From Eledone cirrhosa (taxonomy: Eukaryota), in NCBI GenBank assembly GCA_964016885.1, contig OZ024741.1:65968001-66032000 (forward strand): DNA of 64,000 bases, in the 5' to 3' direction. Below the pieces are notes generated by a model, which saw only the letters and a program-made list of their open reading frames with translations, searched no databases and was not told the origin of the DNA. The position numbers and the translations under genes were made by a program. Below, in pieces: positions 1 through 52,999 of the stretch (the first letter of the stretch is position 1; each line of letters starts with the position of its first letter).

Positions 1-43
1 GTTGGTTGTTTGTTCTATGTGTGTGTGTGTTTTCATTTTGTCC

Positions 44-385
44 TTAATTGTAAGTTGTGATGTTGCTGTTCCACTCATATTTTCTATTTAATTTTGGTTG
101 TAATTCTTTTATGTTTATTGCCTCTGTAATTTGTCTAAACATTGCATCTTTTCTGTGTGTAGATTCCATTTTTATTTCTATGTTCTCTAATTTACCCTTG
201 TGTTCTATCTTAGCATGTTGGTAGAGTACAGATGATTCTTTATTATCTTGAAGGTTTCGCCAGTGTTCATTTATCCGTTCCCCTATACTACGAGCTGTCT
301 CACCTATGTACACTATATTTTTGTCTCTACATTGTCCTTCAGTACATCTTATGCTATACACTACATTTCTAGTTTTACAGTTAAT
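44..385 (-). pseudogene. GIY-YIG endonuclease C-terminal fragment of a Penelope-like element (family C), 5'-truncated
   Basis: Translation CKTRNVVYSIRC...VYIGETARSIGERINEH...LYQHAKIEH...RQITEAINI...LNRKYEW has the GIY-YIG motifs (VVY..YIG, R, H, E, N). Bases ~398-425 are an inverted copy of bases ~1-27 (its own 3' UTR). Confidence 0.85.
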
Positions 386-1090: not shown

Positions 1091-2429
<1,339 letters not shown>

Positions 2430-5737: not shown

Positions 5738-5962
5738 CCAGAGAACGTCTCTATGCACCACTTAGAGAACATTAGTCTACGACCTCTTTTATACCATAAA
5801 CGTGGTTCTGTCTTTGCGCGTAATTGTTTTTCACCGCTCCTATTAATGACGTATTATTCGTTTTTTCCCGTTCTTTGCCAGGGAACGTTACCACGAACCA
5901 AAGTATCGTCTTCCTGTCTTCCTCCGGTTGCAACGTTTTTTGAAATATCCAGTTCTGCGTTT

Positions 5963-6038
5963 ACAGATTGACTTTGTTAGTTTCAGAAGATACCGTTAAG
6001 GGTGAAAGCAGCGATTCTTTGCTTAAACTTTAATCTGT
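5963..6038 (+). ncRNA. Hammerhead-like motif with variant core CAGAAGA (family B, second copy)
   Basis: Same fold as 981-1056; stem II t-acc gttaag ggt. Confidence 0.55.
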
Positions 6039-6050
6039 TATTTTAATAAA

Positions 6051-7171: not shown

Positions 7172-8331
7172 GGAACCAGTAGGACCCCGACAGCTGAGCT
7201 CAAGCCGTTTCGACGGCTAATTCTGGACTAAATGAAAATTTATCCTGGTATTTAAATAGCCGATCTTCTCAAGGGGTAATTCCATATATGGTCAAAGTGA
7301 TTGTCAAAAATCAGTAGTAATTCTGTGGTTGCAAATTAGTAGGGGAGATGGTGGCTAAACCTGCCAGTAGGAGAAAGAGGGGAGGGGGTGGAGAAGACCC
7401 AATCAAGCGTTGGTAGTGCCAGCTACAGCTGGGCATGAGGTCAAAGAAGATACAGGGGAGGGGGAGGGGGAGGAAGTCGGAACGGTAGGTAGAACAATGG
7501 GGGGTAGAAATATATAGAAAAGCAAATAAGTGTAAAGAAAAAAGTAAAGTAAATTAAATTCTACGACCTAGGTGTCAGGCTATTGTTAGGCTAGAATAAA
7601 ATAAAGAAAGAAAGAAAGAAGTAAAGAAATAAATAAATAAATAAATAACGAAAAAAGTAAAAGAACTAGGTGGGACGGAATAGGCAAGCACCCTTTTAAG
7701 AGGTATAAGTACGTAAATGATACGGTGACGGGTCAACAAAAGGGGCCAAAATACTAAAGAGACTACCACGAAATACACAATAAAGGTTTCCATCCCGGGC
7801 CAGCAACGACCCAGTGCAGCAAAGTGAACTTGTACGAGATAGTAATTCTGAGTCCCGAGAAAAATATATACTAATGCTAACTCTAAAAGATCTAAGACAA
7901 GCTACATGAAAGTTCGTACGAAATAAAGGTAGAATACGGAGAAATAAATTCAGAATCCACCCCGCCCAGAAGAAAAGCGAAGCAAGAGATACTGAAACGA
8001 AAAAATAAGGCATAAGTGCCACTAAGAAATATAGAGGGGCCACCAAGAGAATAGTGGGAGCGGTCGGAAAAAGGGGGCAAGTATCCGGGGTCTAAGCCAA
8101 CTGCTATAAAGGGCGGAGTCCGCCAAATCTATCATAGACTAGGGGAGGGGGGTGGTGGGGGTACTAAGGCTACATGGGGCCAAAGGGCAGCCTCGGGTGG
8201 GCGAGAAAAGACGCCGACAAGGAGAAGAGCTGGGGTAGAAGGACAAAGGAGAGAGGGGGGAAGGAAATAAAGGAAGCGATAAAAGAATACAAAGAAGATC
8301 TTACGTCTTCCTTGGCAAGCAGGGGTTACCC
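7172..8331 (-). mobile_element. Family E non-coding retroelement 3' region inserted in (TA)n
   Basis: 7172-7231 is the reverse complement of the family E terminal motif (gtccagaa.tagccgtcgaaacggcttgagctc...gtcggggtc). The remainder is pyrimidine-rich on the minus strand with no credible ORF. Confidence 0.6.
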
Positions 8332-11335: not shown

Positions 11336-11384
<49 letters not shown>

Positions 11385-11413
11385 ATCAAAAGATGGTTAA
11401 AGGAGTTCCATGT

Positions 11414-11482
11414 ATTTTATTATGCGCATTTCAAAAACAAACATCATCATGCAATAATATTTGTGTTTTCATCAGATAAAAC
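11414..11482 (-). ncRNA. Type I hammerhead ribozyme (family A)
   Basis: Same motif as 1222-1290. Confidence 0.8.
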
Positions 11483-12655
11483 AGGAGAACATGATATGAA
11501 GGCTAAAAAACACTTGTGGATGGTGCAGTTTTAAATCAACATATGAAAAGTGGTTTTAGATTGATGTGTGATATTGGGAAAAATATTTTATTTAGAGGGG
11601 GGGGATGAAAAAGGGGAGGAGATGAGAGTGAAGGTGGAGAGGGAGAGATGGGTGATAGAGAGAAAGAGATAGTTTTTAAAACTGAGAGAAGATATATTGT
11701 TTTACATAGAGAGGTTGAAAACCGTTGGAAGATAATGTATAAATTAAAAGAGTTTGAAAATTAACGAAGGGAAAAATATGTACGAGGAAAAAGTATTTTA
11801 TTTAGGGAGGGGGTGGTGGAAAGGATGAAAAAAGGGGAGGAGATGAGAGTGAAGGTGGAGAGGGAGAGATGGGTGATAGAGAGAAAGAGATAGTTTTTAT
11901 AACTGAGAAAAGATATATTGTTTTACATAGAGAGGTTGAGTACCGATGGAAGATAATGTATAAATTAAAAGAATTTGAAAATTAACGAAGGGAAAAATAT
12001 GTACGAGGAAAGAGAGGGAGTTGATATGTATGAAGATAGAGAGAAAAAAATAATAATTGCGGATGAATATCTAACGTCAAAAGGTGTATGTTTATAAGTA
12101 TTGTGACAATTTCAAAATTAAACGAAGAGAAAAAAAATTATTAAGGTTTGTGTGTAGAAGGATTTGAGAAAAATAATGTGAAGTTAAAGTTTGTATATTG
12201 AATGAATTGATAATATGTGCGAAGAAAGAGTTAATATGTATTAAAAAATTATTAAGGTTTGTGTATTAGATGATTTGAGAAAAATAATGGGAAGTTAAGG
12301 TTTGTATATTGAAGGAATTGATAATATGTGCGAAGAAAGAGTTAATATGTATTAAGAATGAGTTCGTTGATGGGGAGAAAAAAATAATAAATTAAGGATG
12401 AAATTGAGATTAAAAAGTTTTATGATAGAGAGAAAAAATAATAATAATTGCGGATGAAGATTCTAACGTCAAAAAAACAAATGTATATGTTATGAAGGAT
12501 TTTACAAGGTGAAGATAGAATGAGGGTAATGAGTAAACAAGTATTATAGAGTGTATAATGCCCTTTGAAGTAAGGTAGGAAGATGGGTATATTTTAAAGA
12601 GGTGTATGTATATGTGCCTTTGAGAAAAGATTCTAAATTGATAAAGAATTGAATA

Positions 12656-15058
12656 TTAGCTGTATACTTTGTGAAAAGTCCTATGGAATTTATGCAGGCA
12701 GATAGAAAACAAATCTGTACGTCTATTTATTATAGAATCTAGATTAGAGATAATGGTAAATTTTTCATTTAGGCAGAGATTACAGATTTTAGATAGAGAG
12801 CTGTTCAAGTATGAGGACGCAGAAGAAACCTTCTTCCAAAAGATGGTATATTTAATGTTTTTGTCTTTCAAGGACCATATGAGTTCTGAGAGAGCCGTGT
12901 TGGTTCTTTTAAGTTTGTATTTAAAAGATGAATGGTGATTATAGAGACGAGCTTTAAAAGAGGTGGAAGTGGAGCCAAAATAGGTGAAGGAATTGGTGCT
13001 AGTTATAACTTTACATTCATAAATTAAGTTTTTATCAAGACAATGGTTGTTGAGAGGACATTTATTTTTAATGCGGCAGTTGCAATTAGAGAGATTATTA
13101 ATGAGTGACCTAGTGTTATCTATAGAAGGAATTGGATTGGAGAAGTTGTTTGCGATAGGAATAATAGGAATAATAGTTTCTTGATTTAGAGTTGGATTAT
13201 GAACATTTAGCGAAGTTGTGTTTGACGTTGTATTTGGGTTTACAGAAGTTAGCCTAGGGTTTACAATGACGTCGGGAGTACTATTACTGTTATTATGAAA
13301 TTCAATGTTGGAAGGAAGAGATTTAGTATTTAGTATTTTATTGTTGTGTTTAGAGATGATGTTGGAAATATTGGAGGATGTAGAATAAGAAAATTTGATG
13401 GTGTGTTTGTTAAATATTTTACTATAGATATGTGAGGGAGGGAAGCATTTATTTAAGGCACTAAAAAATAATTTAGGAATATTGTTATTAATAGAGATGG
13501 AGAAAGGAGCATTATACCAGATTATGTTTTTGTATCTAGGTCTTTTATTAAAGTTATTGGAATGATCATGATTAATTATTCTACTGTAAGTTTTTCTAGA
13601 ATTTGTTTCTTTACTATATTTGATTTTATCTGGATAACCGGCTTTAGAAAGTGCGTTATTATAGTAATTGGCGTTAGCATCAAAGATGTTTTTATTAGAA
13701 GATATGTTAGATATTCTTTTTCCAATATTACTAACTATAGCATTCTTGATATTGGTAGGATGGTTAGATTTAAAGTTAACATAATTTAGGTTCTCATTGT
13801 TTTTATGGTAAGGGTAATATAGGCCAGTGTCAAGATTAAGAGATACATCCAAGAAATTAGCTAGTTTGATACTATTATCAAATTCAATTTTTAGGTTATG
13901 TTGGTTAAAGAGATTACGTATATTGTTCTTAATAATATTAAGGTTAACTATATTGCAATTTAAGATAGTAAAGAGTCCATCGTCACGATAAATTCCACCG
14001 CGAAGTTGAGGAATTTTCCGACTCAAAGAGTTCAAAATAAAGATACCAATTAAATCAGTCAATTGGGATGAATCGGATGCTCCCATTGTGATGTCGAAGT
14101 TGTTAGAGGTATCGGCTCTGGTCCAATATTCGTTGTTGAACTCTAGGATGGTTTTACGTGCGGTGAGGATGATGTGAAGTTCATCTGTGGTGATGTCAGA
14201 ATATTTAAGTGCGAAAGATAGAGCATTATTGAGAAGTGAAGGCGAAATGGAGGAATAGTAGCTGGCAATATCAAATTGAATACATTTTAGTTTGTTTTTA
14301 TTATCCAATTTGTTGAACCAGCCAATCACTTCAGAAGTACCAAACCATAAATTTAGGTTCAAAGAAGAGCAATTAGAACTAACCTGTGGGATAATTCTAT
14401 CCAAGATGGCTTTACTAACAACCCCCAGATCAGATTTAGAGGGGGCGATTAATCTAACAGGTAGTTCAGTGCGAAAATTGTTTTTGTGATCCTTGAGATT
14501 TATCCTCGGAGTTCTTGGGAGGAATGGTTCGGTCTTTTTTTCAATGCCAAGTTTTGACATAATCTCAGAGGCTTCAAGGTTTATGTATTCTAAATGTTCA
14601 TGGTTGGTTTTACGATACTTTTTCCTAAGTTCCTTTAGGATAAGGTTGTTATAATTATCCTTGGAAATACCATATAAGTTATTGGTTTTGTCAGAGTGGA
14701 CTAAAACATTTTTTGAGGAATTTAGGTTAGAAATTGTGTTCTTGAGATTTACAAGGTGCTCTTGTCCTTTGTAAGGGTATCTCTTGAATTTAAGATTTTT
14801 TATTATTTTAGTTAATTCTTCCTCGAATTGTACTAGATTTTTGTTGGAAGGAGGATTTCGTCTAGAATTAAATAGATGATCGAGGAAGTTATGTTCTTTG
14901 GTATGGAAGTTCCCTTTTAGGCGCTGGTCATAGAAATAGGCTGTCCATCTAAGTCTTCTTACGAAGGAGTCAGTTTTTTCAATAAGAAGTTTGGTGAATT
15001 CAGATTTACCAGGTATAGGAATGTCTTTAGTTGAATTGGTTATGTTGTAATAATCCAT
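12656..15058 (-). CDS. PLE polyprotein: reverse transcriptase + C-terminal GIY-YIG endonuclease (Hydra-clade-like), ~800 aa from ATG MDYYNIT
   Basis: Uninterrupted ORF with KDIPIP, RRLRW, SDKTNN, QFDIASYYSSI, MGASDS, YRDDG, FLDV, linker CNCRIKNKC (CxCx5C), LIYEC..YFGST..FKARL..H, CNLC. Confidence 0.93.
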   Translation of the reverse strand: MDYYNITNSTKDIPIPGKSEFTKLLIEKTDSFVRRLRWTAYFYDQRLKGNFHTKEHNFLDHLFNSRRNPPSNKNLVQFEEELTKIIKNLKFKRYPYKGQEHLVNLKNTISNLNSSKNVLVHSDKTNNLYGISKDNYNNLILKELRKKYRKTNHEHLEYINLEASEIMSKLGIEKKTEPFLPRTPRINLKDHKNNFRTELPVRLIAPSKSDLGVVSKAILDRIIPQVSSNCSSLNLNLWFGTSEVIGWFNKLDNKNKLKCIQFDIASYYSSISPSLLNNALSFALKYSDITTDELHIILTARKTILEFNNEYWTRADTSNNFDITMGASDSSQLTDLIGIFILNSLSRKIPQLRGGIYRDDGLFTILNCNIVNLNIIKNNIRNLFNQHNLKIEFDNSIKLANFLDVSLNLDTGLYYPYHKNNENLNYVNFKSNHPTNIKNAIVSNIGKRISNISSNKNIFDANANYYNNALSKAGYPDKIKYSKETNSRKTYSRIINHDHSNNFNKRPRYKNIIWYNAPFSISINNNIPKLFFSALNKCFPPSHIYSKIFNKHTIKFSYSTSSNISNIISKHNNKILNTKSLPSNIEFHNNSNSTPDVIVNPRLTSVNPNTTSNTTSLNVHNPTLNQETIIPIIPIANNFSNPIPSIDNTRSLINNLSNCNCRIKNKCPLNNHCLDKNLIYECKVITSTNSFTYFGSTSTSFKARLYNHHSSFKYKLKRTNTALSELIWSLKDKNIKYTIFWKKVSSASSYLNSSLSKICNLCLNEKFTIISNLDSIINRRTDLFSICLHKFHRTFHKVYS

Positions 15059-15358
15059 GTTGTAGAAGAAGAGGTAAAAGACCATCAAAAGGTATCCAAT
15101 ATGAGAGTAAGCGCTCAACCGTTAAGGAGCAAGTTAATGTAGGAGGTGAGTTTTATTGTAGTACAATAAAGCATTGCAGATATCGGATAAGAAGCACTCT
15201 ACAGTTTGTAGGACTGAAATGCGCATAATAAAATACATGGAACTCCTTTAACCATCTTTTGATCTTATATATTATGTATACTCCAGTCCTACAAACTGTA
15301 GAGTGCTTCTTATCCGATATCTGCATTGCTTTATTGTACTACAATAAAACTCACCTCC

Positions 15359-15414
<56 letters not shown>

Positions 15415-18597: not shown

Positions 18598-18914
18598 ATA
18601 ATATATAATATACTGAAACTGTAGAGGTTTCCAGAGGTTGACTGAGGAGATGGGACTGTCCGTCTTTCTGTTGTTTTTCTCTATTGTCTTAGTCCGGAAC
18701 TGTTGAAACGACAAGAGCTCAGCTGCCGGGTCCCAACGCTTTACAATATAACCATACTCTACTACCCCAAGTATCGAGTACTCTGTTGAGTAATGGTCTA
18801 ACTAGTTTCAAACTGAATCAATCCTAATTTATATATACATATATATTAACACTTAATGGAGTTGTAGGGCATTTAAAATCTGGTAGGACTCATCCTTTTC
18901 CAGGCAATCGATTT

Positions 18915-19415: not shown

Positions 19416-19418
<3 letters not shown>

Positions 19419-19627
19419 CAAAAGGGATATTTAATTTGTTGGTAATTCAACAAATATATATGTTTATAACTGACTATCCGGGAAAAACTTCCTGGATATG
19501 TCAATATTTATAAAACAAACTTTGTATTTTATCTGATGAGAGCGTACCAAAGTTTTGGTACCCTTGAAATGTATATAATAGAATAAATATGGTTTTATAA
19601 ATATAGTTTCCATTTATTTAATATCAT

Positions 19628-19630
<3 letters not shown>
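19416..19630 (+). mobile_element. Solo PLE pLTR-like insertion in (TA)n carrying an HHR
   Basis: Unique 215-bp segment between two TA tracts, containing the HHR below. Confidence 0.7.
19504..19604 (+). ncRNA. Type I hammerhead ribozyme with extended stem I
   Basis: atatttataaaac..tattttat CTGATGA gagcgtaccaaa gt tttggtaccctt GAAA tgtata TA atagaata..gttttataaatat. Confidence 0.85.
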
Positions 19631-21736: not shown

Positions 21737-21896
21737 TAACGAAGGGAGCGTGGTAAGGAAACAGGTGGACCATAACGCACCAGAGTACTCAATACTTAGG
21801 GTAGTAGAGTGGGTAATAGGAAAATGTACAAGATCCCGACAGCAGAAATAGCCGTCGAAACTGCTTGAGCTCTGCCGTCGGGGTCTTGTACATTTT

Positions 21897-21900
<4 letters not shown>
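21737..21900. mobile_element. Family E two-armed mini insertion
   Basis: Left arm (minus) ends ccttcgtta(ta)n; right arm (plus) ends acattttccta(ta)n. Confidence 0.75.
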
Positions 21901-23718: not shown

Positions 23719-23767
<49 letters not shown>

Positions 23768-23800
23768 AAGAAATTAAAAGATGGTTAAAAAAGTTCCATA

Positions 23801-23870
23801 TATTTTATTATACGCATTTCGAAAACAACATCATCCTGAGACAAAAATTGTGTTCTCATCAGATAAAATA
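23801..23870 (-). ncRNA. Type I hammerhead in a solo family-A-related fragment (23764-23900) between TA tracts
   Basis: tattttat CTGATGA Gaacacaa...tgttgttttC GAAA tgcgta TA ataaaata; G-C at 10.1/11.1 where family A has A-U. Confidence 0.78.
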
Positions 23871-23925
23871 AGGTAACATGATATGAGGCCTAAAAGAAAA
23901 TATATATATATATATATATATATAC

Positions 23926-26512: not shown

Positions 26513-26598
26513 TTTCTCCTATTACCCACTCTACTACCCTAAGTATTGAGTACTCTGGTGCGTTATGGTCCATCTTTTTCCTTACCACAACTCCTCCG

Positions 26599-26601
<3 letters not shown>
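26513..26601 (+). mobile_element. Family E long-end arm joined to the truncated LINE
   Basis: ttctcctattacccactctactaccctaagtattgagtactctggtgcg...ctccgtta(ta)n. Confidence 0.75.
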
Positions 26602-26641
<40 letters not shown>

Positions 26642-27537: not shown

Positions 27538-27940
27538 GGATCACAGGTAAGCTAACTAAGAACATAGATTTTACATGTGGCCGGTGCTCTGGTGCAATAA
27601 GTAGCAGCAAGTGCCCACAAAATACTAGCTCTTTCAACTGCGCAGAGGGTCCTATAGAAATAGTGGACAGCTTCCGTTATCTGGGTGACAAAATCAGCAG
27701 TGGGGGAGGGTGCTCTGAAAGTACAGTAGCTAGAGTCAGAACTGGGTGGAAAAAGTTCAGAGAGCTTATACCACTATTAGCCACTAAAGGGTTCTCACTA
27801 AAAATGAAAGGCAGGTTGTACGATGCCTGCATACGAACAGCAATGTTACATGGCAGTGAGACCAGGGCATTGTGTGCAGAGGATATACGCAGACTAGAGA
27901 GGAACGAAGCTTGCATGCTCCACTGGATGTGTAATAGTAA
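27538..27940 (+). pseudogene. RTE LINE fragment (subfamily 1), tail-to-tail with the next copy
   Basis: [17 protein letters not shown]...DSFRYLG...LHWMCNS. Confidence 0.9.
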
Positions 27941-29957
27941 TAGGCGGGTCTTCTCTGTTACTGAGTACCGCCAAAGGTCACGGTCCAGTGACATTGTCTT
28001 GGAGAGGTGTAAGTGTGTGAGGTCGGAGTTTATCAGCTCATCCCAGGTTTTTCTAGGTCTGCCTATTCCGTGGCTACCGTCTATCTTTATTGCCCTGCAC
28101 TTTGTAATACAGCTATCGACTTTCATGCGCATCACGTGTCCATACCAACGCAGCCTTCTCTCGAGTAAACAACATCTGATCCCTCTTATCTCTAATTTTT
28201 TCCTTAGTTCGTTTATGCTTTGCCGTTCACGTATATTACTGTTACACATCCAGCGGAGCATGCAAGCTTCGTTCCTCTCTAGTCTGCGTATATCCTCTGC
28301 ACACAATGCCCAGGTCTCACTGCCATGCAACATTGCTGTTCGTATGCAGGCATCGTACAACCTGCCTTTCATTTTTAGGGAGAACCCTTTAGCAGCTAAT
28401 AGTGGTATAAGCTCTCTGAACTTTTTCCACCCAGTTCTGACTCTAGCTACTGTACTTTCAGAGCACCCTCCCCCACTGCTGATTTTATCGCCCAGGTAAC
28501 GGAAGCTGTCCACTATTTCTATAGAACCCTCTGCGCAATTGAAAGAGCTAGTATTTTGTGGGCACTTGCTGCTACTTATTGCACCAGAACACCGGCCACA
28601 TGTAAAGTCTATGTTCTTGTTCTTAGTTAGCTTACCTGTGATCCCACTACATCTTTTATGCACCCATACTTTGCATTTAGGACATAAGATGGAGTTTCTA
28701 CCTACGCCTTTCCTACATACCGAGCACGACCATTTCCCAGAAGGGACCGCCGCCTTGTTTTCTTTCCTACAAACTAGAACTTTGGTCTTAGCCAGGTTAA
28801 TTTTAAGTCCTTTTGACTCTAGGCCGTGCTTCCATGTTTGGAATTTCTTCTCTAGCTCGGCCATTGATTCCGCTATGAGTGTCAGGTCGTCTGCGTATAG
28901 GAGTTCCCATGGGCAGCCTGTCTTGAACTCCTCTGTTATAGCCTGAAGGGCAATAATAAATAGTAGGGGGCTGAGAACAGAGCCCTGATGGACGCCAACT
29001 TTTACGCTAAACTCTTCACTATATTCGTTGTTAATTCTAACCTTGCTGACTGTTTCTTTATACATGGCTTGTATAGCCCTCACAAGCCATTCGTCAACAC
29101 CTAGTTTTCTAAGAGCCCACCAGATAATGGAGCGGGGGACTCTGTCGAAGGCTTTCTCCAGGTCGACAAAAGCTAAGTAGAGGGGTTTACCTTTAGCTAG
29201 GTACTTCTCCTGTAGTTGTCGTACTATGAAAAGAGCGTCTGTGGTGCTTTTGCCTGACACAAACCCGAACTGCATTTCATCTAGATCAATTCTCTCTCTG
29301 ATTAGTTGCGCTATTACTTTTTCCGTGACCTTCATGACCTGGTCGATTAATTTAATGCCTCTATAGTTACTCCTATCTAGGGCGTCTCCTTTACCCTTAT
29401 AACAGTTAACGATGATGCTGCTATGCCAGTCCTTCGGAACAACCCCATTCTGTACGACTTGGTTAACTATGCGGGTGACCATGGTGTGTCCCACCGTGCC
29501 AGATGCCTTCAGCATCTCAGCAACTATTTCCGAAGGCCCAGCCGCCTTACCAGTCTTCATATCCTTGATTGCCTTACTTATTATACTCCCCTCGACTAAC
29601 ACTGCTGGTCCCTCTATCGGGTCGATATGGGGGAGACTGTCTTTCTCCCATTTATTCTCCTCATTTAGTAGCCTTTCATAGTGACACTTCCAAGCTACCT
29701 TCTTATCAGTGTCGGTGATGGCAAGTATGCCATCATCGTTAAGTACACACTTCTCCCCGACAATATCACGGTTTTCCTTGACGCATTGCCTGGCAATCCT
29801 GAACACCTCACGTTTTTGGTCATCGCGTTGTAGAACATGCTTGAACTTTCTTTCCTCAGCTTCCCTTCTTGCTAAGTACACTTCTCTCCTAGCTTCCCTC
29901 CTGGCCACTTGATAGTCTACTCTACTTACCCCATCCCGCCATACTTTCCAAGCCTGC
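27941..29957 (-). pseudogene. RTE LINE (subfamily 1) RT with PHD-like insertion; 5'-truncated, 3' UTR missing
   Basis: [61 protein letters not shown]. The last ~88 aa of the track ORF are antisense read-through. Confidence 0.93.
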
Positions 29958-30078
29958 TATGTATATATATATATTTGTGTATGTATATATATATGCTATG
30001 TATATATATATATATGTATATGTATATATATATGTATGTATAATATAAGATCAAAAGATGGTTAAAGGAGTTCAATAT

Positions 30079-30147
30079 ATTTTATTATGCGCATTTCAAA
30101 AACAAACATCATCAAACAATAATATTTGTGTTTTCATCAGATAAAAC
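30079..30147 (-). ncRNA. Type I hammerhead (family A, inverted arm)
   Basis: Reverse complement of 30564-30632. Confidence 0.8.
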
Positions 30148-30563
30148 AGGAGAACATGATATGAAGGCTAAAAAAAACACTTGTTGATAGTGCAGTTTTA
30201 AATCAACATATGAAAAGTGGTTTTAGATTGATGTGTGATATTGGGAAAAATATTTTATTATTATCCTCGCACATATCCTCCCTTCGTTAATTTTCAAAAT
30301 TTTTAATTTATACAGTATCTTCCAACGGTTTTCAACCCCTCTATATAAAATATATCTCCTCTCTGTTATAAAAACTATCTCTTTCTCTCTATCACCCATC
30401 TCTCCCTCTCATCTCCTTCCCTTTTCATCCTTTTCTCTCCCCCCCTCTCTAAATAAAATATTTTTCCCAATATCACACATCAATCTAAAACCACTTTTCA
30501 TATGTTGATTTAAAACTGCACTATCAACAAGTGTTTTTTTTAGCCTTCATATCATGTTCTCCT

Positions 30564-30632
30564 GTTTTATCTGATGAAAACACAAATATTATTGTTTGAT
30601 GATGTTTGTTTTTGAAATGCGCATAATAAAAT
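30564..30632 (+). ncRNA. Type I hammerhead (family A, 5' pLTR); predicted cleavage after 30625
   Basis: gttttat CTGATGA...t GAAA tgcgca TA ataaaat. Confidence 0.82.
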
Positions 30633-30837
30633 ATATTGAACTCCTTTAACCATCTTTTGATCTTATATTATGCATACTCCAGTCCCACAAACTGTAGAGT
30701 GCTTCTTATCCGATATCTGCATTGCTTTATTGTACTACAATAAAACTCACCTCCTACATTTACTTGCTCCTTAACGGTTGAGCGCTTACTCTCATATTGG
30801 ATACCTTTTGATGGTCCTTCACCTCTTCTTCTACAAC

Positions 30838-33240
30838 ATGGATTATTACAACATAACCAATTCTACTAAAGACATTCCTATACCTGGTAAATCTGAATTC
30901 ACCAAACTTCTTATTGAAAAAACTGACTCCTTCGTAAGAAGACTTAGATGGACAGCCTATTTCTATGACCAGCGCCTAAAAGGGAACTTTCATACCAAAG
31001 AACACAACTTCCTCGATCATCTTTTTAATTCCAGACGAAATCCTCCTTCCAACAAAAATCTAGCACAATTCGAGGAAGAATTAACTAAAATTATAAAAAA
31101 TCTTAAATTCAAGAGATACCCTTACAAAGGACAAGAGCACCTTGTAAATCTCAAGAACACAATCTCTAACCTAAATTCCTCAAAAAATGTTTTAGTCCAC
31201 TCTGACAAAACCAATAACCTATATGGTATTTCCAAGGATAATTATAACAACCTTATCCTAAAGGAACTTAGGAAAAAGTATCGTAAAACCAACCATGAAA
31301 ATTTAGAATGCATAAACCTTGAAGCCTATGAGATTATGTCAAAACTTGGCATTGAAAAAAAGACCGAACCATTCCTCCCAAGAACTCCGAGGATAAATCT
31401 CAAGGATCACAAAAACAATTTTCGCACTGAACTACCTGTTAGATTAATCGCCCCCTCTAAATCTGATCTGGGGGTTGTTAGTAAAGCCATCTTGGATAGG
31501 ATTATCCCACAGGTTAGTTCTAATTGCTCTTCTTTAAACCTAAATTTATGGTTTGGTACTTCTGAAGTGATTGGCTGGTTCAACAAATTGGATAATAAAA
31601 ACAAACTAAAATTTATTCAATTCGATATTGCCAGCTACTATTCCTCCATTTCGCCTTCACTTCTCAATAATGCTCTATCTTTCGCACTTAAATATTCTGA
31701 CATCACCACAGATGAACTTCACATCATCCTCACCGCACGTAAAACCATCCTAGAGTTCAACAACGAATATTGGACCAGAGCCGATACCTCTAACAACTTC
31801 GACATCACAATGGGAGCATCCGATTCATCCCAATTGACTGATTTAATTGGTATCTTCATTTTGAACTCTTTGAGTCGGAAAATTCCTCAACTTCGCGGTG
31901 GAATTTATCGTGACGATGGACTCTTTACTATCCTAAATTGCAATATAGTTAAACTTAATATTATTAAGAACAATATACGTAATCTCTTTAACCAACATAA
32001 CCTAAAAATTGAATTTGATAATAGTACCAAACTAGCTAATTTCTTGGATGTATCTCTTAATCTTGACACTGGCCTATATTACCCTTACCATAAAAACAAT
32101 GAGAATCTTAATTATGTTAACTTTAAATCTAACCATCCTACCAATATCAAGAATGCTATAGTTAATAATATTGGAAATAGAATATCTAACATATCTTCTA
32201 ATAAAAACATCTTTGATGCTAACGCCAATTACTATAATAACGCACTTTCTAAAGCCGGCTATCCAGATAAAATCAAATATAATAAAGAAACAAATTCTAG
32301 GAAAACTTACAGTAGAATATTTAATCATAACCATTCCAATAATTTTAATAAAAGACCTAGATACAAAAACATAATCTGGTATAATGCTCCTTTCTCCATC
32401 TCTATTAATAACAATATTCCTAAATTATTTTTTAGTGCCTTAAATAAATGCTTCCCTCCCTCACATATCTATAGTAAAATATTTAACAAACACACCATTA
32501 AATTTTCGTATTCTACATCCTCCAATATTTCCAACATCATTTCTAAACACAACAACAAAATATTAAATACTAAATCTCTTCCTTCCAATATTGAATCTCA
32601 TAATAACAATAATAGTACTCCTGACGTCATTGTAAACCCTAGGCTAACTTCTGTAAACCCAAATGCAACGTCAAACACAACTTCGCTAAATGTTCATAAT
32701 CCAACTCTAAATCAAGAAACTATTATTCCTATTATTCCTATCGCAAACAACTTCTCCAATCCAATTCCTTCTATAGATAACACTAGATCACTCATTAATA
32801 ATCTCTCTAATTGCAACTGCCGCATTAAAAATAAATGTCCTCTCAACAACCATTGCCTCGATAAAAACTTAATTTATGAATGTAAAATTATAACTAGCAC
32901 CAACTCCTTCACCTATTTTGGCTCCACTTCCACCTCTTTTAAAGCTCGTCTCTATAATCATCATTCATCTTTCAAATACAAACTTAAAAGAACTAACACT
33001 GCTCTCTCAGAACTCATATGGTCCTTAAAAGACAAAAACATTAAATATAACATCTTTTGGAAAAAGATTTCTTCTGCATCCTCGTACTTGAACAGTTCTC
33101 TATCTAAAATCTGTAATCTCTGCCTAAATGAAAAATTTACCATTATCTCTAACCTAGAATCCATAATAAATAGACGCTCGGATTTGTTTTCCATCTGCCT
33201 GCATAAATTCCATAGAACTTTTCACAAAGTATACAGTTAA
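30838..33240 (+). CDS. PLE polyprotein RT + GIY-YIG (Hydra-clade-like), ~800 aa
   Basis: Intact ORF of the same length as, and highly similar to, 12656-15058; YRDD, CxCx5C linker, LIY..YFG..R..H, CNLC. Confidence 0.94.
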   Translation: MDYYNITNSTKDIPIPGKSEFTKLLIEKTDSFVRRLRWTAYFYDQRLKGNFHTKEHNFLDHLFNSRRNPPSNKNLAQFEEELTKIIKNLKFKRYPYKGQEHLVNLKNTISNLNSSKNVLVHSDKTNNLYGISKDNYNNLILKELRKKYRKTNHENLECINLEAYEIMSKLGIEKKTEPFLPRTPRINLKDHKNNFRTELPVRLIAPSKSDLGVVSKAILDRIIPQVSSNCSSLNLNLWFGTSEVIGWFNKLDNKNKLKFIQFDIASYYSSISPSLLNNALSFALKYSDITTDELHIILTARKTILEFNNEYWTRADTSNNFDITMGASDSSQLTDLIGIFILNSLSRKIPQLRGGIYRDDGLFTILNCNIVKLNIIKNNIRNLFNQHNLKIEFDNSTKLANFLDVSLNLDTGLYYPYHKNNENLNYVNFKSNHPTNIKNAIVNNIGNRISNISSNKNIFDANANYYNNALSKAGYPDKIKYNKETNSRKTYSRIFNHNHSNNFNKRPRYKNIIWYNAPFSISINNNIPKLFFSALNKCFPPSHIYSKIFNKHTIKFSYSTSSNISNIISKHNNKILNTKSLPSNIESHNNNNSTPDVIVNPRLTSVNPNATSNTTSLNVHNPTLNQETIIPIIPIANNFSNPIPSIDNTRSLINNLSNCNCRIKNKCPLNNHCLDKNLIYECKIITSTNSFTYFGSTSTSFKARLYNHHSSFKYKLKRTNTALSELIWSLKDKNIKYNIFWKKISSASSYLNSSLSKICNLCLNEKFTIISNLESIINRRSDLFSICLHKFHRTFHKVYS

Positions 33241-34473
33241 TATTCAATTCTTTATCAATTTAGAATCTTTTCTCAAAGGCACATATACATACACCTCTTT
33301 AAAATATACCCATCTACCTTACTTTAAAGGGCATTATACACTCTATAGTACTCGTTTACTCATTTACCTCATCCTATCTTCTCGTAAAACAATAACATTT
33401 GTTTTTGACATTTTGAATATTCATCCGCAATCATTATTATTTTTTTTTTTTTCCCTCTATCATAAATCTTTTTAATCTCAATTTCATCCTTAATTTATTA
33501 TTATATATTTTTTTTAATATATACTCATATATTCTTTAAAATATACCCATCTACCTTACTTTAAAGGGCATTATACACTCTATAATACCCGTTTACTCAT
33601 CACCCTCATTATATCTCCTCGTAAATAACATTTGTTTTTGACATTTTGAGTATTCATCCGCAATCATTATTATTTTTTCTCTCTATCATAAATCTTTTTA
33701 ATCTCAATTTCATCCTTAATTTATTATTATTTTTTTCTCCCCATCAACGAACTCATTATTAATACATATGAATTCAATATAAAAACTCTAACTTCACATT
33801 ATTTTTCTCAAATCCTATACATAAACTTTTTCTCTTTGCTAATTTTAAAATTCCTACATTTCTCCTTTTGAATATTCACCCACAATTATTATTTTTTTTC
33901 TCTCTATCTCCATACATAATCTCCCTTCGTTATTTTTTTCTCTCTATCTCCATACATAATTTCCCTTCGTTAATTTTCAAATTCCTTTAATTTATACATT
34001 ATCTTCCAACGGTTCCCAACCTCTCTATATTAAAACATTATATCTTTTTCTCAGTTATAAAAACTATCTCTTTCTCTCTATCACCCATCTCTCCCTTTCC
34101 ACCTTCACTCTCATCTCCTCCCCTTTTTTTCATCCTTTCCACCCCCACCCCTCCCTAAATATAATATATTTTTTCCTCGCACATATCCTCCCTTCGTTAA
34201 TTTTCAAAATTTTTAATTTATACAGTATCTTCCAACGGTTTTCAACCCCTCTATATAAAATATATCTCCTCTCTGTTATAAAAACTATCTCTTTCTCTCT
34301 ATCACCCATCTCTCCCTCTCATCTCCTTCCCTTTTCATCCTTTTCTCTCCCCCCCTCTCTAAATAAAATATTTTTCCCAATATCACACATCAATCTAAAA
34401 CCACTTTTCATATGTTGATTTAAAACTGCACTATCAACAAGTGTTTTTTTTAGCCTTCATATCATGTTCTCCT

Positions 34474-34542
34474 GTTTTATCTGATGAAAACACAAATATT
34501 ATTGTTTGATGATGTTTGTTTTTGAAATGCGCATAATAAAAT
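34474..34542 (+). ncRNA. Type I hammerhead (family A, 3' pLTR); predicted cleavage after 34535
   Basis: Identical to 30564-30632. Confidence 0.82.
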
Positions 34543-34781
34543 ATATTGAACTCCTTTAACCATCTTTTGATCTTATATTATGCATACTCCAGTCCCACAA
34601 ACTGTAGAGTGCTTCTTATCCGATATCTGCATTGCTTTATTGTACTACAATAAAACTCACCTCCTACATATATATGTATGTATATATATGTATATATATA
34701 TGTATATATATATATGTATGTATATATATATATGTATGTATATATAGGTATGTATATATATATATGTGTATGTATATATAT

Positions 34782-36677: not shown

Positions 36678-38363
36678 CTTTTCATTGTACGACAACTACA
36701 GGAGAAGTACCTAGCTAAAAGTAAACCCCTATACTTAGCTTTCGTCGACTTGGAGAAGGCCTTCGACAGAGTCCCCCGTTCCATTATCTGGTGGGCTCTT
36801 AGAAAACTAGGTGTTGATGAATGGCTTGTGAGAGCTATACAAGCCATGTATAAAGAAACAGTCAGCAAGGTTAGAATTAACAACGAATATAGTGAAGAGT
36901 TTAGTGTAAAAGTTGGTGTTCATCAGGGATCTGTTCTTAGCCCCCTACTATTTATTATTGCCCTTCAGGCTATAACAGTGGAGTTCAAGACCGGCTGGCC
37001 ATGGGAACTCCTAGACGCAGATGATCTAACGCTCATAGCTGAATCAATGGCCGAGCTAGAGAAGAAATTCCAAACATGGAAGCACGGCCTAGAATCAAAA
37101 GGCCTTAAAATTAACCTTGCTAAGACTAAAGTTCTAGTTTGTAAGAAAGAAAATAAGGCGGCGGTCCCCTCCGGGAAGTGGCCATGCGCAGAGTGTAGGA
37201 AAGGCGTAGGTAGAAACTCCATTTTGTGTCCCAAATGCAAAGTTTGGGTGCATAAAAGATGTAGTGGTATCACAGGTAAGCTAACTAAGAACATAGATTT
37301 TACATGTGGCCGGTGTTCCGGCGCAATAAGTAGCAGCAAGTGCCCACAAAATACTAGCTCTTTCAGCTGCGCAGAGGGTTCTATAGAAATAGTGGACAGC
37401 TTCCGTTACCTGGGTGACAAAATCAGCAGTGGGGGAGGGTGCTCTGAAAGTACAGTAGCTAGAGTCAGAACTGGGTGGAAAGTTCAGAGAGCTTATACCA
37501 CTATTAGCCGCTAAAGGGTTCTCCCTAAAAATGAAAGGCAGGTTGTACAATGCCTGCATACGAACAGCAATGTTGCATGGCAGTGAGACCTGGGCATTGT
37601 GTGCAGAAGATATACGCAGACTAGAGAGAAACGAAGCTTGCATGCTCCGCTGGATGTGTAATAGTAATATACGTGAACGACAAAGCATAAACGAACTAAG
37701 GAAAAAATTAGAAATAAGAGGGATCAGATGTTGTTTACTTGAGAGAAGGCTACGTTGGTATGGTCAAGTAATGCGCATGAAGGACGATAGCTGTATAACA
37801 AAGTGCAGGGCAATAAAGATAGACGGTAGCCACGGAATAGGCAGACCCAGAAAAACCTGGGACGAGCTGATAAACTCCGACCTCACACACTTACACCTCA
37901 CCAAGACAATGTCACTGGACCGAGACCTTTGGCGGTACTCAGTAATAGAGAAGACCCGCCTTACCTAAATACATAGTAAAACCTACTACAGCCAGTAGGC
38001 ATCTCTAACAAAATACACCCCGTCCCACCACCCACACCCCATCCACACCACCCCCTCCTATGTAAAGTTATGTTGGTGCCACAACATCCAGGCTGAAACA
38101 AATGAGATCGTGTAGGTGTCACGACAAAAAAACACACAGTCCACGCTGTAATGTGGCCGTGTAGGCAACACGGTAAAAACCTCCCAGTCCCACACTGTAA
38201 ATGTGGTTGGTGTTAGGAAGGGCATCCAACTGTAGAAAACCTGCCAGACAGTCCTATGCGAGCAAGACAATCACTCTTGCCTCAAGTGGGAATACCCCCG
38301 TCCAAACCCATACAAGCGTGGAACACGGACGTTAAACGTTGATGATGATGATGATGATGATGA
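36678..38363 (+). pseudogene. RTE LINE (subfamily 1), 5'-truncated, with 3' UTR and (GAT)n tail
   Basis: RT motifs with YADD changed to DADD, frameshift near 37480, stop at 37968, tail ggacgttaaacgtt(gat)n. Confidence 0.92.
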
Positions 38364-38847: not shown

Positions 38848-39181
38848 TGGACAACGTTTTATAGTAAAACACAATTTCACATGTGCATCGGAAAATCTAA
38901 TATATGTATTAACTTGTTCAGGTTGTCGAGAACAATACATAGGCCAGACCAAAAACAGCCTTCGCCAACGCATGACTGTCCATAGATCCCAAATCAAAAT
39001 ACGGGAATACAGGAAAATACCACTGAGTGAACACATTGATACCTGCGCCGCCCAAAATCATCCCAACTTCAGAATCTTTCCCCTCTACAAATTTAAAGAT
39101 AATGCCACCCACACCCAGCGCATCAGCAAGGAATCTTACTTCATTAACAAATACGGACCCCGTCTAAACACTTCTCCCTAA
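38848..39181 (+). pseudogene. GIY-YIG endonuclease fragment of a Neptune-like PLE (3' UTR probably extends to ~40278)
   Basis: [36 protein letters not shown]...LSEH..C...R..KE..FI...PRLN. Confidence 0.85.
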
Positions 39182-40364: not shown

Positions 40365-40405
40365 GTATATATATATGTATATATATATATATGTATATAT
40401 ATATA

Positions 40406-40573
40406 TGTAGGAGGTGAGTTTTATTGTAGTACAATAAAGCAATGCAGATATCGGATAAGAAGCACTCTACAGTTTGTAGGACTGGAGTATACATAATATA
40501 TAAGAACAAAAGATGGTTAAAAGAGTTCCATACATGGAACTCTTTTAACCATCTTTTGTTCTTATATATTATG

Positions 40574-40577
<4 letters not shown>
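40406..40577. mobile_element. Family A minimal two-armed (hairpin) insertion
   Basis: Left arm (minus) ends ctcctaca; right arm (plus) ends gttcttatatattatgtata; arms meet at ~40531. Confidence 0.88.
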
Positions 40578-40622
<45 letters not shown>

Positions 40623-41712
40623 GATGTAGTGGGATCACAGGTAAGCTAACTAAGAACATAGATTTTACATGTGGCCGGTGCTCTGGTGCAATAAGTAGCA
40701 GCAAGTGCCCACAAAATACTAGCTCTTTCAATTGCGCAGAGGGTTCTATAGAAATAGTGGACAGCTTCCGTTACCTGGGCGATAAAATCAGCAGTGGGGG
40801 AGGGTGCTCTGAAAGTACAGTAGCTAGAGTCAGAACTGGGTGGAAAAAGTTCAGAGAGCTTATACCACTATTAGCTGCTAAAGGGTTCTCCCTAAAAATG
40901 AAAGGCAGGTTGTACGATGCCTGCATACGAACAGCAATGTTGCATGGCAGTGAGACCTGGGCATTGTGTGCAGAGGATATACGCAGACTAGAGAGGAACG
41001 AAGCTTGCATGCTCCGCTGGATGTGTAACAGTAATATACGTGAACGGCAAAGCATAAACGAACTAAGGAAAAAATTAGAAATAAGAGGGATCAGATGTTG
41101 TTTACTCGAGAGAAGGCTACGTTGGTATGGACACGTGATGCGCATGAAAGTCGATAACTGTATAACAAAGTGCAGGGCAATAAAGATAGACGGTAGCCAC
41201 GGAATAGGCAGACCTAGAAAAACCTGGGATGAGCTGATAAACTCCGACCTCACACACTTACACCTCTCCAAGACAATGTCACTGGACCGAGACCTTTGGC
41301 GGTACTCAGTAACAGAGAAGACCCGCCTTACCTAAATACATAGTAAAACCTACTACAGCCAGTAGGCATCTCTAACAAAATACACCCCGTCCCACCACCA
41401 CCACCCCCACCCCATCCACACCACCCCGTTCTATGTAAAGTTATGTTGGTGCCGCGCCATCCAGGCCGAAACAAATGAGATCGTGTAGGTGTCACGACAA
41501 AAAAACACACAGTCCACGCTGTAATGTGGCCGTGTAGGCAACACGGTAAAAACCTCCCAGACCCACACTGCAAATGTGGTTGGTGTTAGGAAGGGCATCC
41601 AACTGTAGAAAACCTGCCAGACAGTCCTATGCGAGCAAGACAATCACTCTTGCCTCAAGTGGGACTACCCCCGTCCAAACCCATGCAAGCGTGGAACACG
41701 GACGTTAAACGT

Positions 41713-43838: not shown

Positions 43839-43996
43839 TTCTGGACTAAAGTAACTTTAGTCCAGAAATAGCCGTCGAAACAGGCTTGAGCTCTGCCGTC
43901 GGGGTCATACTTTCTCCTATTACCCACTCTACTACCCTAAGTATTGAGTACTCTGGTGCGTTATAGTCCATCTGGTTCCTTACCACAACCTCTCCG

Positions 43997-44203: not shown

Positions 44204-46089
44204 ATCATCATCATCATCATCATCACCGTTTTACGTCCGTTCTTCCACGCTAGCATGGGTTAGACGGGTTGTCCTGTTGTGGGCAGTGTCTGGTCGGCTG
44301 ACCATGCCTTGCTCATACAGGAACTGATCTGGCTTGATTTCTACAGCTGGATGCCCTTCCTAACACCAACCTCATTTACAGTGAGTGCTGGGTGCTTTTT
44401 CGTGGCGCCTACACGTCCACTTTACAGTGTGGGCTGGGTGCTTTTTTGCCGTGGCACCTCCACGACCACCTTGCGGTGGGGGGGGGGGGGGCATATTGTT
44501 TATATGCTTCAGCATGTACCCATGGGAGGTCGGGTACCCTGTATTACTGCGTGACGCCAGAAGTCACGGTCGTGTGTCATTGACTTTGAGAGGTGTAGTT
44601 GGGTAAGGTCGGCTTTTATCACCTCATCCCAAGTCATCTTGGGTCTCCCCACTCCGCGGTTTCCATCAACTTCTAGTGCTCTGCACCTTTTTATGCAGCT
44701 GTCATCCTTCATACACATCACATGTCCATACCAGCGTAACCGCCTCTCCTGCACGCAGCATTTGATTCCTCTTATGCTCAGTCTCTCTCTCAATTCATTT
44801 ATGCTTTGTCGTTCACGTATATTACTGTTACACATCCATCGGAGCATGCAGGCTTCGTTTCTCTCTAATCTACGTAAGTCTTCCACCTTCAGCGCCCAGG
44901 TCTCACTACCATGCAACATCGCTGTTCGGATACACGCATCATACAGTCTGCCTTTCATTCTGAGGGAGAAGCCTTTTGCAGCTAGCAGTGGTAGTAGTTC
45001 CCTAAACTTCTTCCATCCCGTTCTTACCCTAGTTATTGTACTTTCTGAGCACCCACCTCCGTTGCTAATTCGGTCACCTAGGTAGCAGAAGCTGTCTACT
45101 GTTTCTACAGGGCCCTCCCAGAGATTGGTGGTACTTGTTTCCTGTGGCTGTTTGCTTGCTGTTTCAGCACAGCTGCTGCATGTGAATCCTACATTCTTAA
45201 TTAAGCTTCCTGAGATCCCGCTACATCTCTTGTGTACCCATTGTTTGCATTTGGGGCAAAGAATGGAGTTCCTACCTACACCTTTCCTACATACTGAGCA
45301 AGGCCATTTCCCTGAGGGGATCTGGGTTCTGTTTTCTCGTCTACTTATAAGGACCTTAGTCTTTGTCATGTTGACTTTGAGGCCCTTTCTCTCTAGTCCC
45401 TGCTTCCAGGTTTGGAATTTATTCTCTAGTTCTACCATAGATTCAGCTATGAGTGCGAGGTCATCAGCATACAGGAGTTCCCATGGGCATCCGGTCTTAA
45501 ACTCCTCCGTTATTGCCTGCAGGACTATGATGAACAGGAGAGGGCTAAGAACAGAGCCCTGGTGGACCCCAACCTGTACGCTAAATTCCTCGCTATACTC
45601 ATTGCCAATCCTAACTTTGCTGACTGCTCCCCTATACATGGCTTGTACCGCTTTCACAAGCCATTCATCTACTCCTAGTTTTCTAAGAGCCCACCAGATT
45701 ACTGCACGTGGAACTCTGTCAAAGGCTTTCTCAAGGTCGACAAATGCCAAGTAGAGTGGCTTACTTTTAGCTAGGTACTTTTCCTGTAATTGCCTCACAA
45801 GGAAGAGCGCATCAGTGGTGCCTTTCCCTGGTACAAACCCAAATTGCATCTCGTCTATATTCACCCGGTCCCTAATCAGCTGTGCTATAACTCTTTCTGT
45901 TACTTTCATGACCTGGTCCATCAACTTTATACCTCTATAGTTTCCTCTATCTAGTGCATCGCCTTTACCTTTGTAGCAGTTGACAATGATGCTACTGCAC
46001 CAATCTTTTGGTATGGCCCCCTCTAGTATTACCTGGTTAACAATACGTGTGGTTATAGTGTGACCTACAGACCCAGATGCCTTCAGCAT
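44204..46089 (-). pseudogene. RTE LINE (subfamily 2), 5'-truncated, open RT + PHD-like finger, 3' UTR and (GAT)n tail
   Basis: MLKASG...YADD...WPCSVC..CPKCKQWVHKRC..CSSC...FCYLG...GRPKMTW; stop at 44509. Confidence 0.93.
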
Positions 46090-46149
46090 ATATATATATA
46101 TATATATATAAATATACATATATATGTCTGTGTGTGTGTGTATATACAC

Positions 46150-46411
46150 ACACACAATCATCGCGTACACACATACACAAAATCATCCAACATATGATTT
46201 GTGACATTTGCACTAGATCACATATTTGCTTTATCGTTCATTAAATGACTATGAATACATATCTTTAGTACTTGTTTTACAAGTTGGTATACAGCTACGA
46301 CTATTATGGAAAGTTGACTCTGGTAGAGATTTGAACTTGAAATGTTAAGAGACGAAGTGGCAGTGAGAGTATAGGACAAAATGCCTTGCTATATTTATAT
46401 ATACATATATA
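46150..46411 (+). repeat. 262-bp direct repeat, copy 2
   Basis: Matches 26701-26962. Confidence 0.93.
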
Positions 46412-51771: not shown

Positions 51772-51961
51772 AAGAAAAGGTTTGACACCTACGGCAGAGC
51801 TCAAGCCATTTCGACGGCTATTTTTGTCCAGAAATAGCCATCGAAACGGCTTGAGCTCTGCCGTCGGAGTCAAACTTTTTCCTATTACCAACTCTACTAC
51901 CCTGAGTATTGAGTACTCTGGTGCATTATGGTCCATCTGGTTCCTTACCACACCTCCTTTG

Positions 51962-52004
<43 letters not shown>

Positions 52005-52168
52005 AAAAGAGTCAGGACCCTGACAGCTGAGCTCCAGCCGTTTCGACAGCTAGTTCTGAATGAGAAATGGCCGGAGCTCAGCCGTCAGGGTCCTGACTCT
52101 TTTCCTATTACCCACTCTTCTACCCAAAGTATGGAGTACTCTGGTGCATTATGGTCCACCTTCCTTCG

Positions 52169-52903: not shown

Positions 52904-52993
52904 TAACGAAGGATATGTGGTAAGGAACCAGATGGACCATAACGTAGAAATTGCCGTCGACACGGCTTGAGGTCTGCCGTCGGAGTTAAACAT

Positions 52994-52999
<6 letters not shown>
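52904..52999. mobile_element. Family E two-armed mini
   Basis: Left minus long end (ccttcgtta), right plus short end (cattttca). Confidence 0.7.

Follow-up and report, generated by a model that had tools for sequence, protein, structure and literature searches.

A Penelope-like element with Hydra-clade motifs from Eledone cirrhosa: hammerhead ribozymes, twin hairpins and the ends of its copies

The element and its hammerhead ribozymes

The window analysed here, a stretch of 64,000 nucleotides (nt) from Eledone cirrhosa (assembly GCA_964016885.1, contig OZ024741.1, positions 65,968,001 to 66,032,000), contains an intact Penelope-like element (PLE). Its open reading frame (ORF) for a reverse transcriptase (RT) and an endonuclease lies between two pseudo-long terminal repeats (pLTRs), each with a hammerhead ribozyme (HHR), and judged by its motifs the element belongs to the Hydra clade of PLEs. 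Positions within the element are numbered from +1, the first base 3' of the predicted hammerhead cut (30626 and 34536). The focal insertion comprises the following features:

30040..30259, minus strand: inverted short arm, -174..+46, identical to the pLTR up to +46
30080..30146, minus strand: HHR motif carried by the inverted arm, with its cut predicted after 30086
30260..30263, unstranded: head-to-head arm junction, 4 extra bases
30264..30759, plus strand: 5' pLTR, -362..+134
30565..30631, plus strand: 5' type-I HHR, predicted cut after 30625
30676..30703, plus strand: hairpin 1 (+51), with ACUC/GAGU in place of GCUC/GAGC, shortly 3' of end site 1 (+40..+46)
30766..30786, plus strand: hairpin 2 (+141), shortly 3' of end site 2 (+134)
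30838..33240, plus strand: intact ORF for RT and endonuclease, 800 aa from the ATG at 30838
33241..34173, plus strand: long 3' untranslated region (UTR) with degenerate tandem duplications
34174..34669, plus strand: 3' pLTR, equal to the 5' pLTR, ending at +134 in (TA)n, with hairpin 1 only
34475..34541, plus strand: 3' HHR, predicted cut after 34535
34586..34613, plus strand: copy of hairpin 1 in the 3' pLTR, by motif match

HHRs were called with a purpose-made descriptor that demands the full core and three stems. Together with repeat comparison, it confirmed what a sequence-only reading of the same DNA had described, an intact PLE with two same-sense HHRs exactly 3910 nt apart, and it likewise predicts the cuts that had been expected after 30625 and 34535. 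The pLTRs are identical as claimed, yet over 496 nt (30264-30759 = 34174-34669) instead of 495. With 4406 nt the plus arm measures 1.127 units, matching the earlier estimate of about 1.13, and it ends within a TA/TATG microsatellite. We place this end at +134, the difference to the previously given +133 being obscured by the AT microhomology shared with (TA)n in the flank. The inverted short arm of the insertion carries a third HHR and stops 4 nt short of hairpin 1, in a (TA)n/TATG microsatellite.

A canonical HHR within the pLTR, which is a Hydra-clade trait, is predicted with full core and three stems, while two same-sense HHRs one unit apart are a retrozyme-like trait. The 5' HHR combines a 6-bp stem I, a long stem II with A-U at 10.1-11.1 and a stem III, ATGCGCAT, that is perfectly palindromic, as had been noted. 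The earlier suspicion that this HHR depends on dimerization agrees with computed folding: the active monomer fold reaches -4.6 vs -10.6 kcal/mol for the minimum free energy (MFE) structure, whereas the active dimer, at -29.1 kcal/mol, is predicted to be favoured over two MFE monomers (-21.2 kcal/mol). In Rfam searches the HHR was unscored at the gathering threshold, and at E<=5 chance matches only were obtained. The descriptor finds an HHR in 26 of 78 related loci, in most of which stem III is palindromic, and across the clade about 40-60 nt separate the HHR from hairpin 1 downstream of it. Among the HHRs of the window, position 10.1-11.1 covaries (A-U, G-C, G-U). Two divergent single arms with (TA)n flanks on both sides also possess HHRs, namely 19416-19630 (G-U at 10.1-11.1, stem III ATGTATAT) and 23752-23899 (G-C, stem III ATGCGTAT).

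The ORF encodes 800 aa from the ATG at 30838, or 809 aa if an in-frame ATG at 30811 is used. It contains the RT motifs RWT, DKT and YRDDG, an Asn-rich linker, CxCx5C and, at the C-terminus, an endonuclease of the GIY-YIG type with CxxC and CxH. As diagnostics of the Hydra clade, RWK, DKT, CxCx5C, CxxC, CxH and the lack of CCHH were described (Craig et al., 2021, PMC8557442). Compared to these, the focal ORF has RWT where the alignment majority has RWK, without GxK[FY]; DKT is present (a modified DKG), with D and K invariant in the alignment; the CxCx5C linker is present, as are CxxC and CxH around E/N, and CCHH is absent. The endonuclease (IY..YFG plus conserved R/H/E/N) follows the RT within a single ORF, and insertion into (TA)n, another trait of the clade, holds for all family arm ends in the window. 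Only the unit length of 3910 nt departs from the <3 kb that is typical, though not diagnostic, for the clade, and this length is due to the UTR duplications (33296-33510/33533-33736 at 89%; 33954-34171/34181-34375 at 80%) and the Asn-rich linker. From its motifs we regard the element as an ordinary new member of the Hydra clade, unusual only in length. A Naiad or Chlamys PLE was rejected, since the endonuclease is C-terminal and not N-terminal, the motif is DKT and not DKA, and an HHR is present.

A Pfam search with the ORF protein gave no match. Homologues of the ORF (n=70) share 31-40% identity, and relatives in viral contigs were not found. An Argonauta match at 38% identity and the microsatellite load are compatible with a cephalopod host. 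Both the focal ORF and that of a sister copy in the window (copy A) are open, with dN/dS of 0.11 between them; by this comparison the ORF appears to be under purifying selection. Between RT and endonuclease lies an Asn-rich (25%) insert of about 90 aa (32545-32820), which is in frame in both intact copies, and inserts resembling it have been reported from Adineta Penelopes.

Twin hairpins and the ends of copies

Between the cut and the ATG lie two conserved bulged hairpins, which in relatives read GCUC-Y-[loop]-R-U(U/C/A)-GAGC-ACU. The strict pattern gave 84 sense and 7 antisense matches in 46 of the 78 related loci, compared to 0.37 sense matches per dinucleotide shuffle (30 shuffles, maximum 1). 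When the inner pair is left free, 72 of 74 distinct GCTC..GAGC-ACT instances pair at this position (C-G 49, U-A 22, A-U 1). All hairpin statistics are pattern counts, as the variable loops came out misaligned when 37 hairpins were aligned with MAFFT. The two hairpins are 55-75 nt apart at 29 junctions in relatives and 90 nt apart in the focal element, whose hairpin 1 shows a compensatory A-U closing pair; ViennaRNA assigns hairpin 2 a pairing probability of about 0.55. The 13-nt interior of focal hairpin 1 (30676-30703) equals that of hairpin 2 in a related locus (L020:437-464) whose protein is 37% identical.

Besides the focal insertion, three sister insertions of the same family were mapped:

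11378..15216, minus strand: long arm of sister copy A, from +55 via the intact ORF to about +43 (site 1)
15215..15363, plus strand: inverted short arm of copy A, -13..+134 (site 2)
1186..2227, unstranded: sister insertion C, minus arm about -827..+43, plus arm -13..+134
40405..40575, unstranded: sister insertion D, minus arm about +10..+134, plus arm about +6..+46
15215, 2078 and 40530, together with arms of a third family, unstranded: short-arm 5' ends near the HHR

Copy A had been read as an almost exact but circularly permuted unit at 11382-15216. Its long arm is indeed near-unit and permuted, falling 11-14 nt short of one unit; it starts, however, at +55 and not +57, ends at about 11378-11381 (+40..+43), and is not free-standing, as the inverted arm is attached to it. 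The arms of copy A differ by one mismatch in 80 nt at +55..+134 and by none in 56 nt at -13..+43. This mismatch is private to copy A and leaves the models undistinguished.

Several short arms have their 5' ends clustered at the HHR, at -13 (the base of stem II) twice, at +6 and at +10, and at about -22 in the third family. The junction of insertion C (2050-2090) comprises stuttered partial copies of HHR stem III and the cut-site motif, for which RT slippage at stem II or templated repair may be offered as alternatives.

Where copies end follows a rule. Arms in the window stop about 4-10 nt before a hairpin. Among the relatives, 12 of 13 arms with real flank end at most 4 nt from a hairpin start by BLAST, eight at hairpin 2 and four at hairpin 1; ten contig-end rows, two duplicate rows and three microsatellite-only rows were excluded from the 13 scorable arms, and two of the ten dropped contig-end rows also stop 2-3 nt before a hairpin. 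All eight hairpin-2 ends have a same-strand ORF upstream. Copies never include the hairpin 3' of their own end. Furthermore, each of the nine two-armed insertions in the window (four of the focal family, one of a second Hydra family and four of a third, site 2 being assigned by spacing in the latter two families) has one end of each type, for which independent choice at even odds gives a probability of 0.002.

Public data point in the same direction. In four public contig sets +134 is the family-wide end, with at least 25 contigs running into (AT)n at 30759, and contig depth, which is not copy number, falls about 175-fold (X1) and 133-fold (X2) between the bins flanking +134. The sequence-only reading had put weight on the overrun past the cut site; this is no oddity but the rule in the Hydra clade, found in 24 of 24 usable published consensus sequences. 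These were taken from the HHR table of Craig et al. (2021), leaving aside a family with a 5'-end HHR, one with no HHR and a minus-strand row. Their ends past the cut are bimodal: 10 of the 24 lie at +30..48 and 11 at +88..153, with two at +63..70 and one at +355.

Given these observations, the hairpins are very probably RT-binding elements that define where copying starts, and the stretch of 90 nt that separates the start sites would represent what is called the 'tail' of PLEs. Alternatively, +134 might be a polyadenylation site with ordinary 3'-end priming. The earlier reading had pointed to an AATAAA just upstream, which indeed lies at 34649-34654 (+114..+119) and is followed by CA 13 nt on, a canonical geometry. 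However, neither AATAAA nor ATTAAA occurs within 40 nt at any of the 11 other site-2 ends checked, so that the signal is unlikely to define this end. None of the +134 ends is followed by poly(A), ORF transcripts would already be halted at the identical signal of the 5' pLTR, and site 1 is left unexplained. We consider polyadenylation hardly credible. Telomerase-like addition of TA/ACAT repeats at +134 was likewise rejected, since the flank type tracks target orientation and only two of four cases fit.

Two related loci (L020:2936-2953 and L069:2419-2438) show two different Hydra-clade elements tail to tail in one (TA)n tract.

The twin hairpins, the end rule and strand transfer between pLTRs were not found in print, by a search that was thin on subscription papers and left out Figs S1-S2 of PMC11167929 (RNA fold), which may bear on novelty. 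A term search for 'hairpin' and 'stem-loop' gave no occurrence in the main text of PMC8557442.

Crossing of the ribozyme site

Hairpin 2 was found only at the 5' pLTR-ORF junction of the focal copy; the 3' pLTR is without it. Consequently, if hairpin 2 directs the start at +134, an ORF-bearing arm ending there began at the front of the element and crossed to its back. In addition, since no copy retains the hairpin lying 3' of its own end, straight copying of one unit would decay from +134 to +43 and then to nothing. ORF-bearing arms that end at site 2, two of three in the window and, among relatives, 8 of 12, are in our view likely not to derive from straight one-unit copying, and RT would have to cross from front to back. 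This supports the earlier claim of a template that is continuous or bridged across the HHR site, and does so with a stronger argument than the one originally given. The accompanying dichotomy, that the RNA either forms a circle or stays uncut at the 3' HHR, is right in that crossing is needed, but it omits homology transfer between pLTRs and end-to-end jumping, which yield the same product. Simple copying of an uncut one-unit transcript is weakened by the twin-hairpin rule, and the earlier interpretation is overall partly supported.

LTR retrotransposons and retroviruses prime near the 5' end of their RNA and transfer to the 3' end through terminal redundancy. Crossing by such a first-strand transfer on linear RNA is the reading that we tentatively put forward, as one possibility among several. 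The element protein would bind both hairpins at the 5' pLTR-ORF junction, and one cut end of the target DNA would be primed at each. The cDNA would then transfer by homology to the identical 3' pLTR and so reach the ORF, with the pLTR overlap acting as an 'R' region and the 3' HHR left uncut. A strong stop might result from 5' HHR cutting or from the cap site, and a second transfer or an uncut leader could add the extra 0.13 unit, thereby rebuilding the pLTR. Like in LTR elements, priming would be 5'-proximal and transfer would use redundancy; in contrast, the primer would be target DNA cut by the GIY-YIG endonuclease and not a tRNA, the focal element is without recognised RNase H or integrase, and pLTR length varies. 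The HHR of the Anolis Poseidon element PAc requires protein for cleavage (Frangieh et al., 2024, PMC11167929), and one might speculate that protein-dependent cleavage makes the 5' HHR, beside both hairpins, cut more readily than the 3' HHR.

Two observations in the window speak for a linear route, as do the HHR mutants of PAc and the HHR-less Naiads described below. First, the 5' end of the focal arm (-362, base 30264) falls on the boundary of an older duplication of 220 nt in the UTR and that of the C arm on a paralogue of the same motif, as if both were fixed RNA 5' ends. Second, the arms of insertion D, neither of which crosses the cut site, stop at about +6 and +10, as on an RNA that was 5'-cut and unligated. 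Classical twin priming on one linear RNA, by comparison, fits poorly, as the arms overlap by 56-220 nt on the template.

Several points weigh against the hairpin-directed transfer. The argument from fixed 5' ends concerns two arms and was made post hoc, and slippage in a U-run or microhomology could give the same picture. Identical pLTRs, exact crossing and the near-unit stop of copy A would be predicted by transfer and circle alike, and the junction of a ligated circle would read just like the genomic pLTR. To our knowledge, no RNase H domain has been recognised in the focal element or in PLEs generally, and transfer would thus need host RNase H or strand displacement. One relative (L054) has an arm that ends 40 nt from hairpin 1, and hairpin 2 was not seen in the second and third family of the window. 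Hairpin 1 reaches a ViennaRNA pairing probability of only about 0.1 in the drawn register. The motif was counted in the same loci from which it had been derived, so that covariation is the stronger test. Finally, contigs from short-read metagenomes may join an ORF to the end of a different copy, and the window copies alone are free of this caveat, provided that the assembly is right.

A circle would serve the same purpose. Excision of a 3910-nt RNA by dimeric HHR cutting, its ligation, and hairpin-primed RT that rolls past the junction and, by strand displacement, beyond one unit would produce such arms. This hypothesis is not new, as HHR excision, ligation and more-than-unit reverse transcription were proposed for PLEs by Cervera and de la Peña (2014). 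It fits the constant distance of the HHR to hairpin 1 across the clade, the prevalence of palindromic stem III among descriptor-found HHRs with the dimer fold favoured, the covarying 10.1-11.1 pair and the stop of copy A shortly before one unit is complete. Crossing of the cut by window arms is exact, without indels, and among the public-contig rows listed none had an indel or joint at the cut. Furthermore, pLTR-related retrozymes form RtcB-ligated circles (PMC7229834; bioRxiv 2026.07.22.740005). On the other hand, HHR mutants left insertion unchanged in PAc, the only PLE studied in vitro, where uncut RNA was the dominant substrate (PMC11167929), and the HHR-less Naiads share the anatomy of tandems, inverted arms and tails (PMC8557442). 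Cleavage by minimal PLE HHRs is weak (Cervera and de la Peña, 2014), and the focal HHR is without the canonical G10.1-C11.1. In two arms the end coincides with a putative fixed 5' terminus of the RNA upstream of the cut, whereas circles have no such terminus, and the circles so far demonstrated are non-coding retrozymes of 170-400 nt (PMC7229834). Our literature search found no full-length PLE circle. Terminal overlaps of 36-229 nt in eight metagenome contigs were not used as evidence for circles because pLTRs alone yield assembly cycles. Weighing both sides, we regard the circle as doubtful. A more specific version, in which a dimer of the PLE protein grips the two hairpins as telomerase-like template boundaries, primes both (TA)n ends and copies the HHR-excised 3.9-kb circle past its start, appears somewhat more doubtful still. 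If copying of a circle were true, a protein-coding retrotransposon would move by rolling-circle reverse transcription and rebuild its pLTR each time.

No crossing at all would be needed on an uncut tandem or read-through RNA, either from a rare head-to-tail master or as (UA)n read-through from the parental flank. A multi-copy mRNA is the model of Frangieh et al. (PMC11167929) for Anolis PAc, and the order ORF-HHR-hairpins-ATG is found in tandem in several relatives (L012, L015, L055), which may be assembly cycles. As to read-through, every end in the window borders on (TA)n, with short AT microhomology at both start sites. However, with the hairpin 3' of the end lost in each copy, tandems would shrink per generation unless rebuilt, and contig depth just 3' of +134 is about that of the ORF start (3806 vs 3747 in X1; not copy number). 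In six of the eight site-2 ends of relatives no (TA)n follows directly, and priming from the flank would leave the mixed ends of all nine two-armed insertions unexplained. Such templates are an unlikely source of the crossing arms.

R2 elements jump between templates and usually add or lose bases at the junction. Comparable end-to-end jumping across HHR-cut unit-length RNAs, the released 5' leader being the final target, would make a ligase unnecessary and account both for the D arms near +1 and for a focal arm that ends at a fixed upstream point. The exactness with which window arms cross the cut, and the lack of base changes among the public-contig rows listed, make this very improbable.

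Relation to known elements and further elements in the window

The Hydra-clade elements (Craig et al., 2021, PMC8557442), such as Hydra-1_Obim and Penelope-n_HM, share with the focal element the motifs, the C-terminal GIY-YIG endonuclease and the HHR in the pLTR, as well as (TA)n targets, a partial tandem with inverted arm and a tail at one end. Standard PLE anatomy includes partial tandems as well as inverted arms and a tail on one side (PMC8557442). The focal element differs by its unit of 3910 nt vs the usual <3 kb, its tail of about 90 nt vs the 30-40 quoted for PLEs, and an HHR with long stem II and A-U at 10.1-11.1. In PAc, RT starts at two internal sites, the stretch between them constitutes the tail, the minimal RNA reaches beyond these sites in the 3' direction, and cutting and extension take place on both strands (Frangieh et al., 2024, PMC11167929). 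The proposed focal start sites are alike in that two internal starts downstream of the HHR cut define the tail, RNA 3' of them would be needed, and AT-rich targets would be extended on both strands. In contrast, PAc has both starts in a single AC-rich stem loop within the ORF, whereas the putative focal ones belong to the 5' UTR, where each is located 5' of a separate copy of the bulged hairpin, and PAc loci are full tandems. Non-LTR retrozymes (Cervera and de la Peña, 2020, PMC7229834; Li et al., 2026, bioRxiv) resemble the focal element in their pLTR-related type-I HHR, the tandem logic and a dimer-type stem III. Yet they are non-coding, of 170-400 nt, with efficient HHRs and demonstrated circles, while the focal element is 3.9 kb long, encodes an intact RT-endonuclease ORF, is autonomous and is known from DNA sequence.

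The twin hairpins offer a concrete cis-element, a rule for copy ends and, by logic, the requirement that RT pass from front to back. With two intact, close ORFs and a minimal RNA of 230 nt, the transfer, circle and tandem models are separable by means of marked pLTRs. The RTs of PLEs and those of telomerases are sister groups (PMC8557442), and a start-defining hairpin would thus be of wider interest.

Further elements share the window. A second Hydra-clade family (2842-6050 and 428-1070) has a 5'-truncated ORF with DKT. Its HHR core reads CAGAAGA, not CUGANGA, in three of three copies, the long arm is without the GAAA core, the ends lie at about +27 and +113, and hairpin 1 is long-looped. A third small family shares the hairpin in its ACUC/GAGU form, ends in (TA)n and carries an HHR-like motif that is atypical; no ORF was seen in it, and it may extend the hairpin rule:

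21740-21900, 51773-51962, 52003-52150, 52905-52999, 43840-43995, 26513-26602, 7172-7260 and 18640-18830, unstranded: third small family

Fragments of other GIY-YIG PLE endonucleases lie at 38848-39181 and 1-300. The former has CxxC between GIY and YIG, with no HHR or hairpin motif downstream, and is presumably Neptune- or Naiad-like by motif. Finally, copies of an RT of the long interspersed nuclear element type (YADD) with an inserted Cys-rich PHD-like finger were detected at 27677-29956, 36700-37968, 40625-41335 and 44509-46182.

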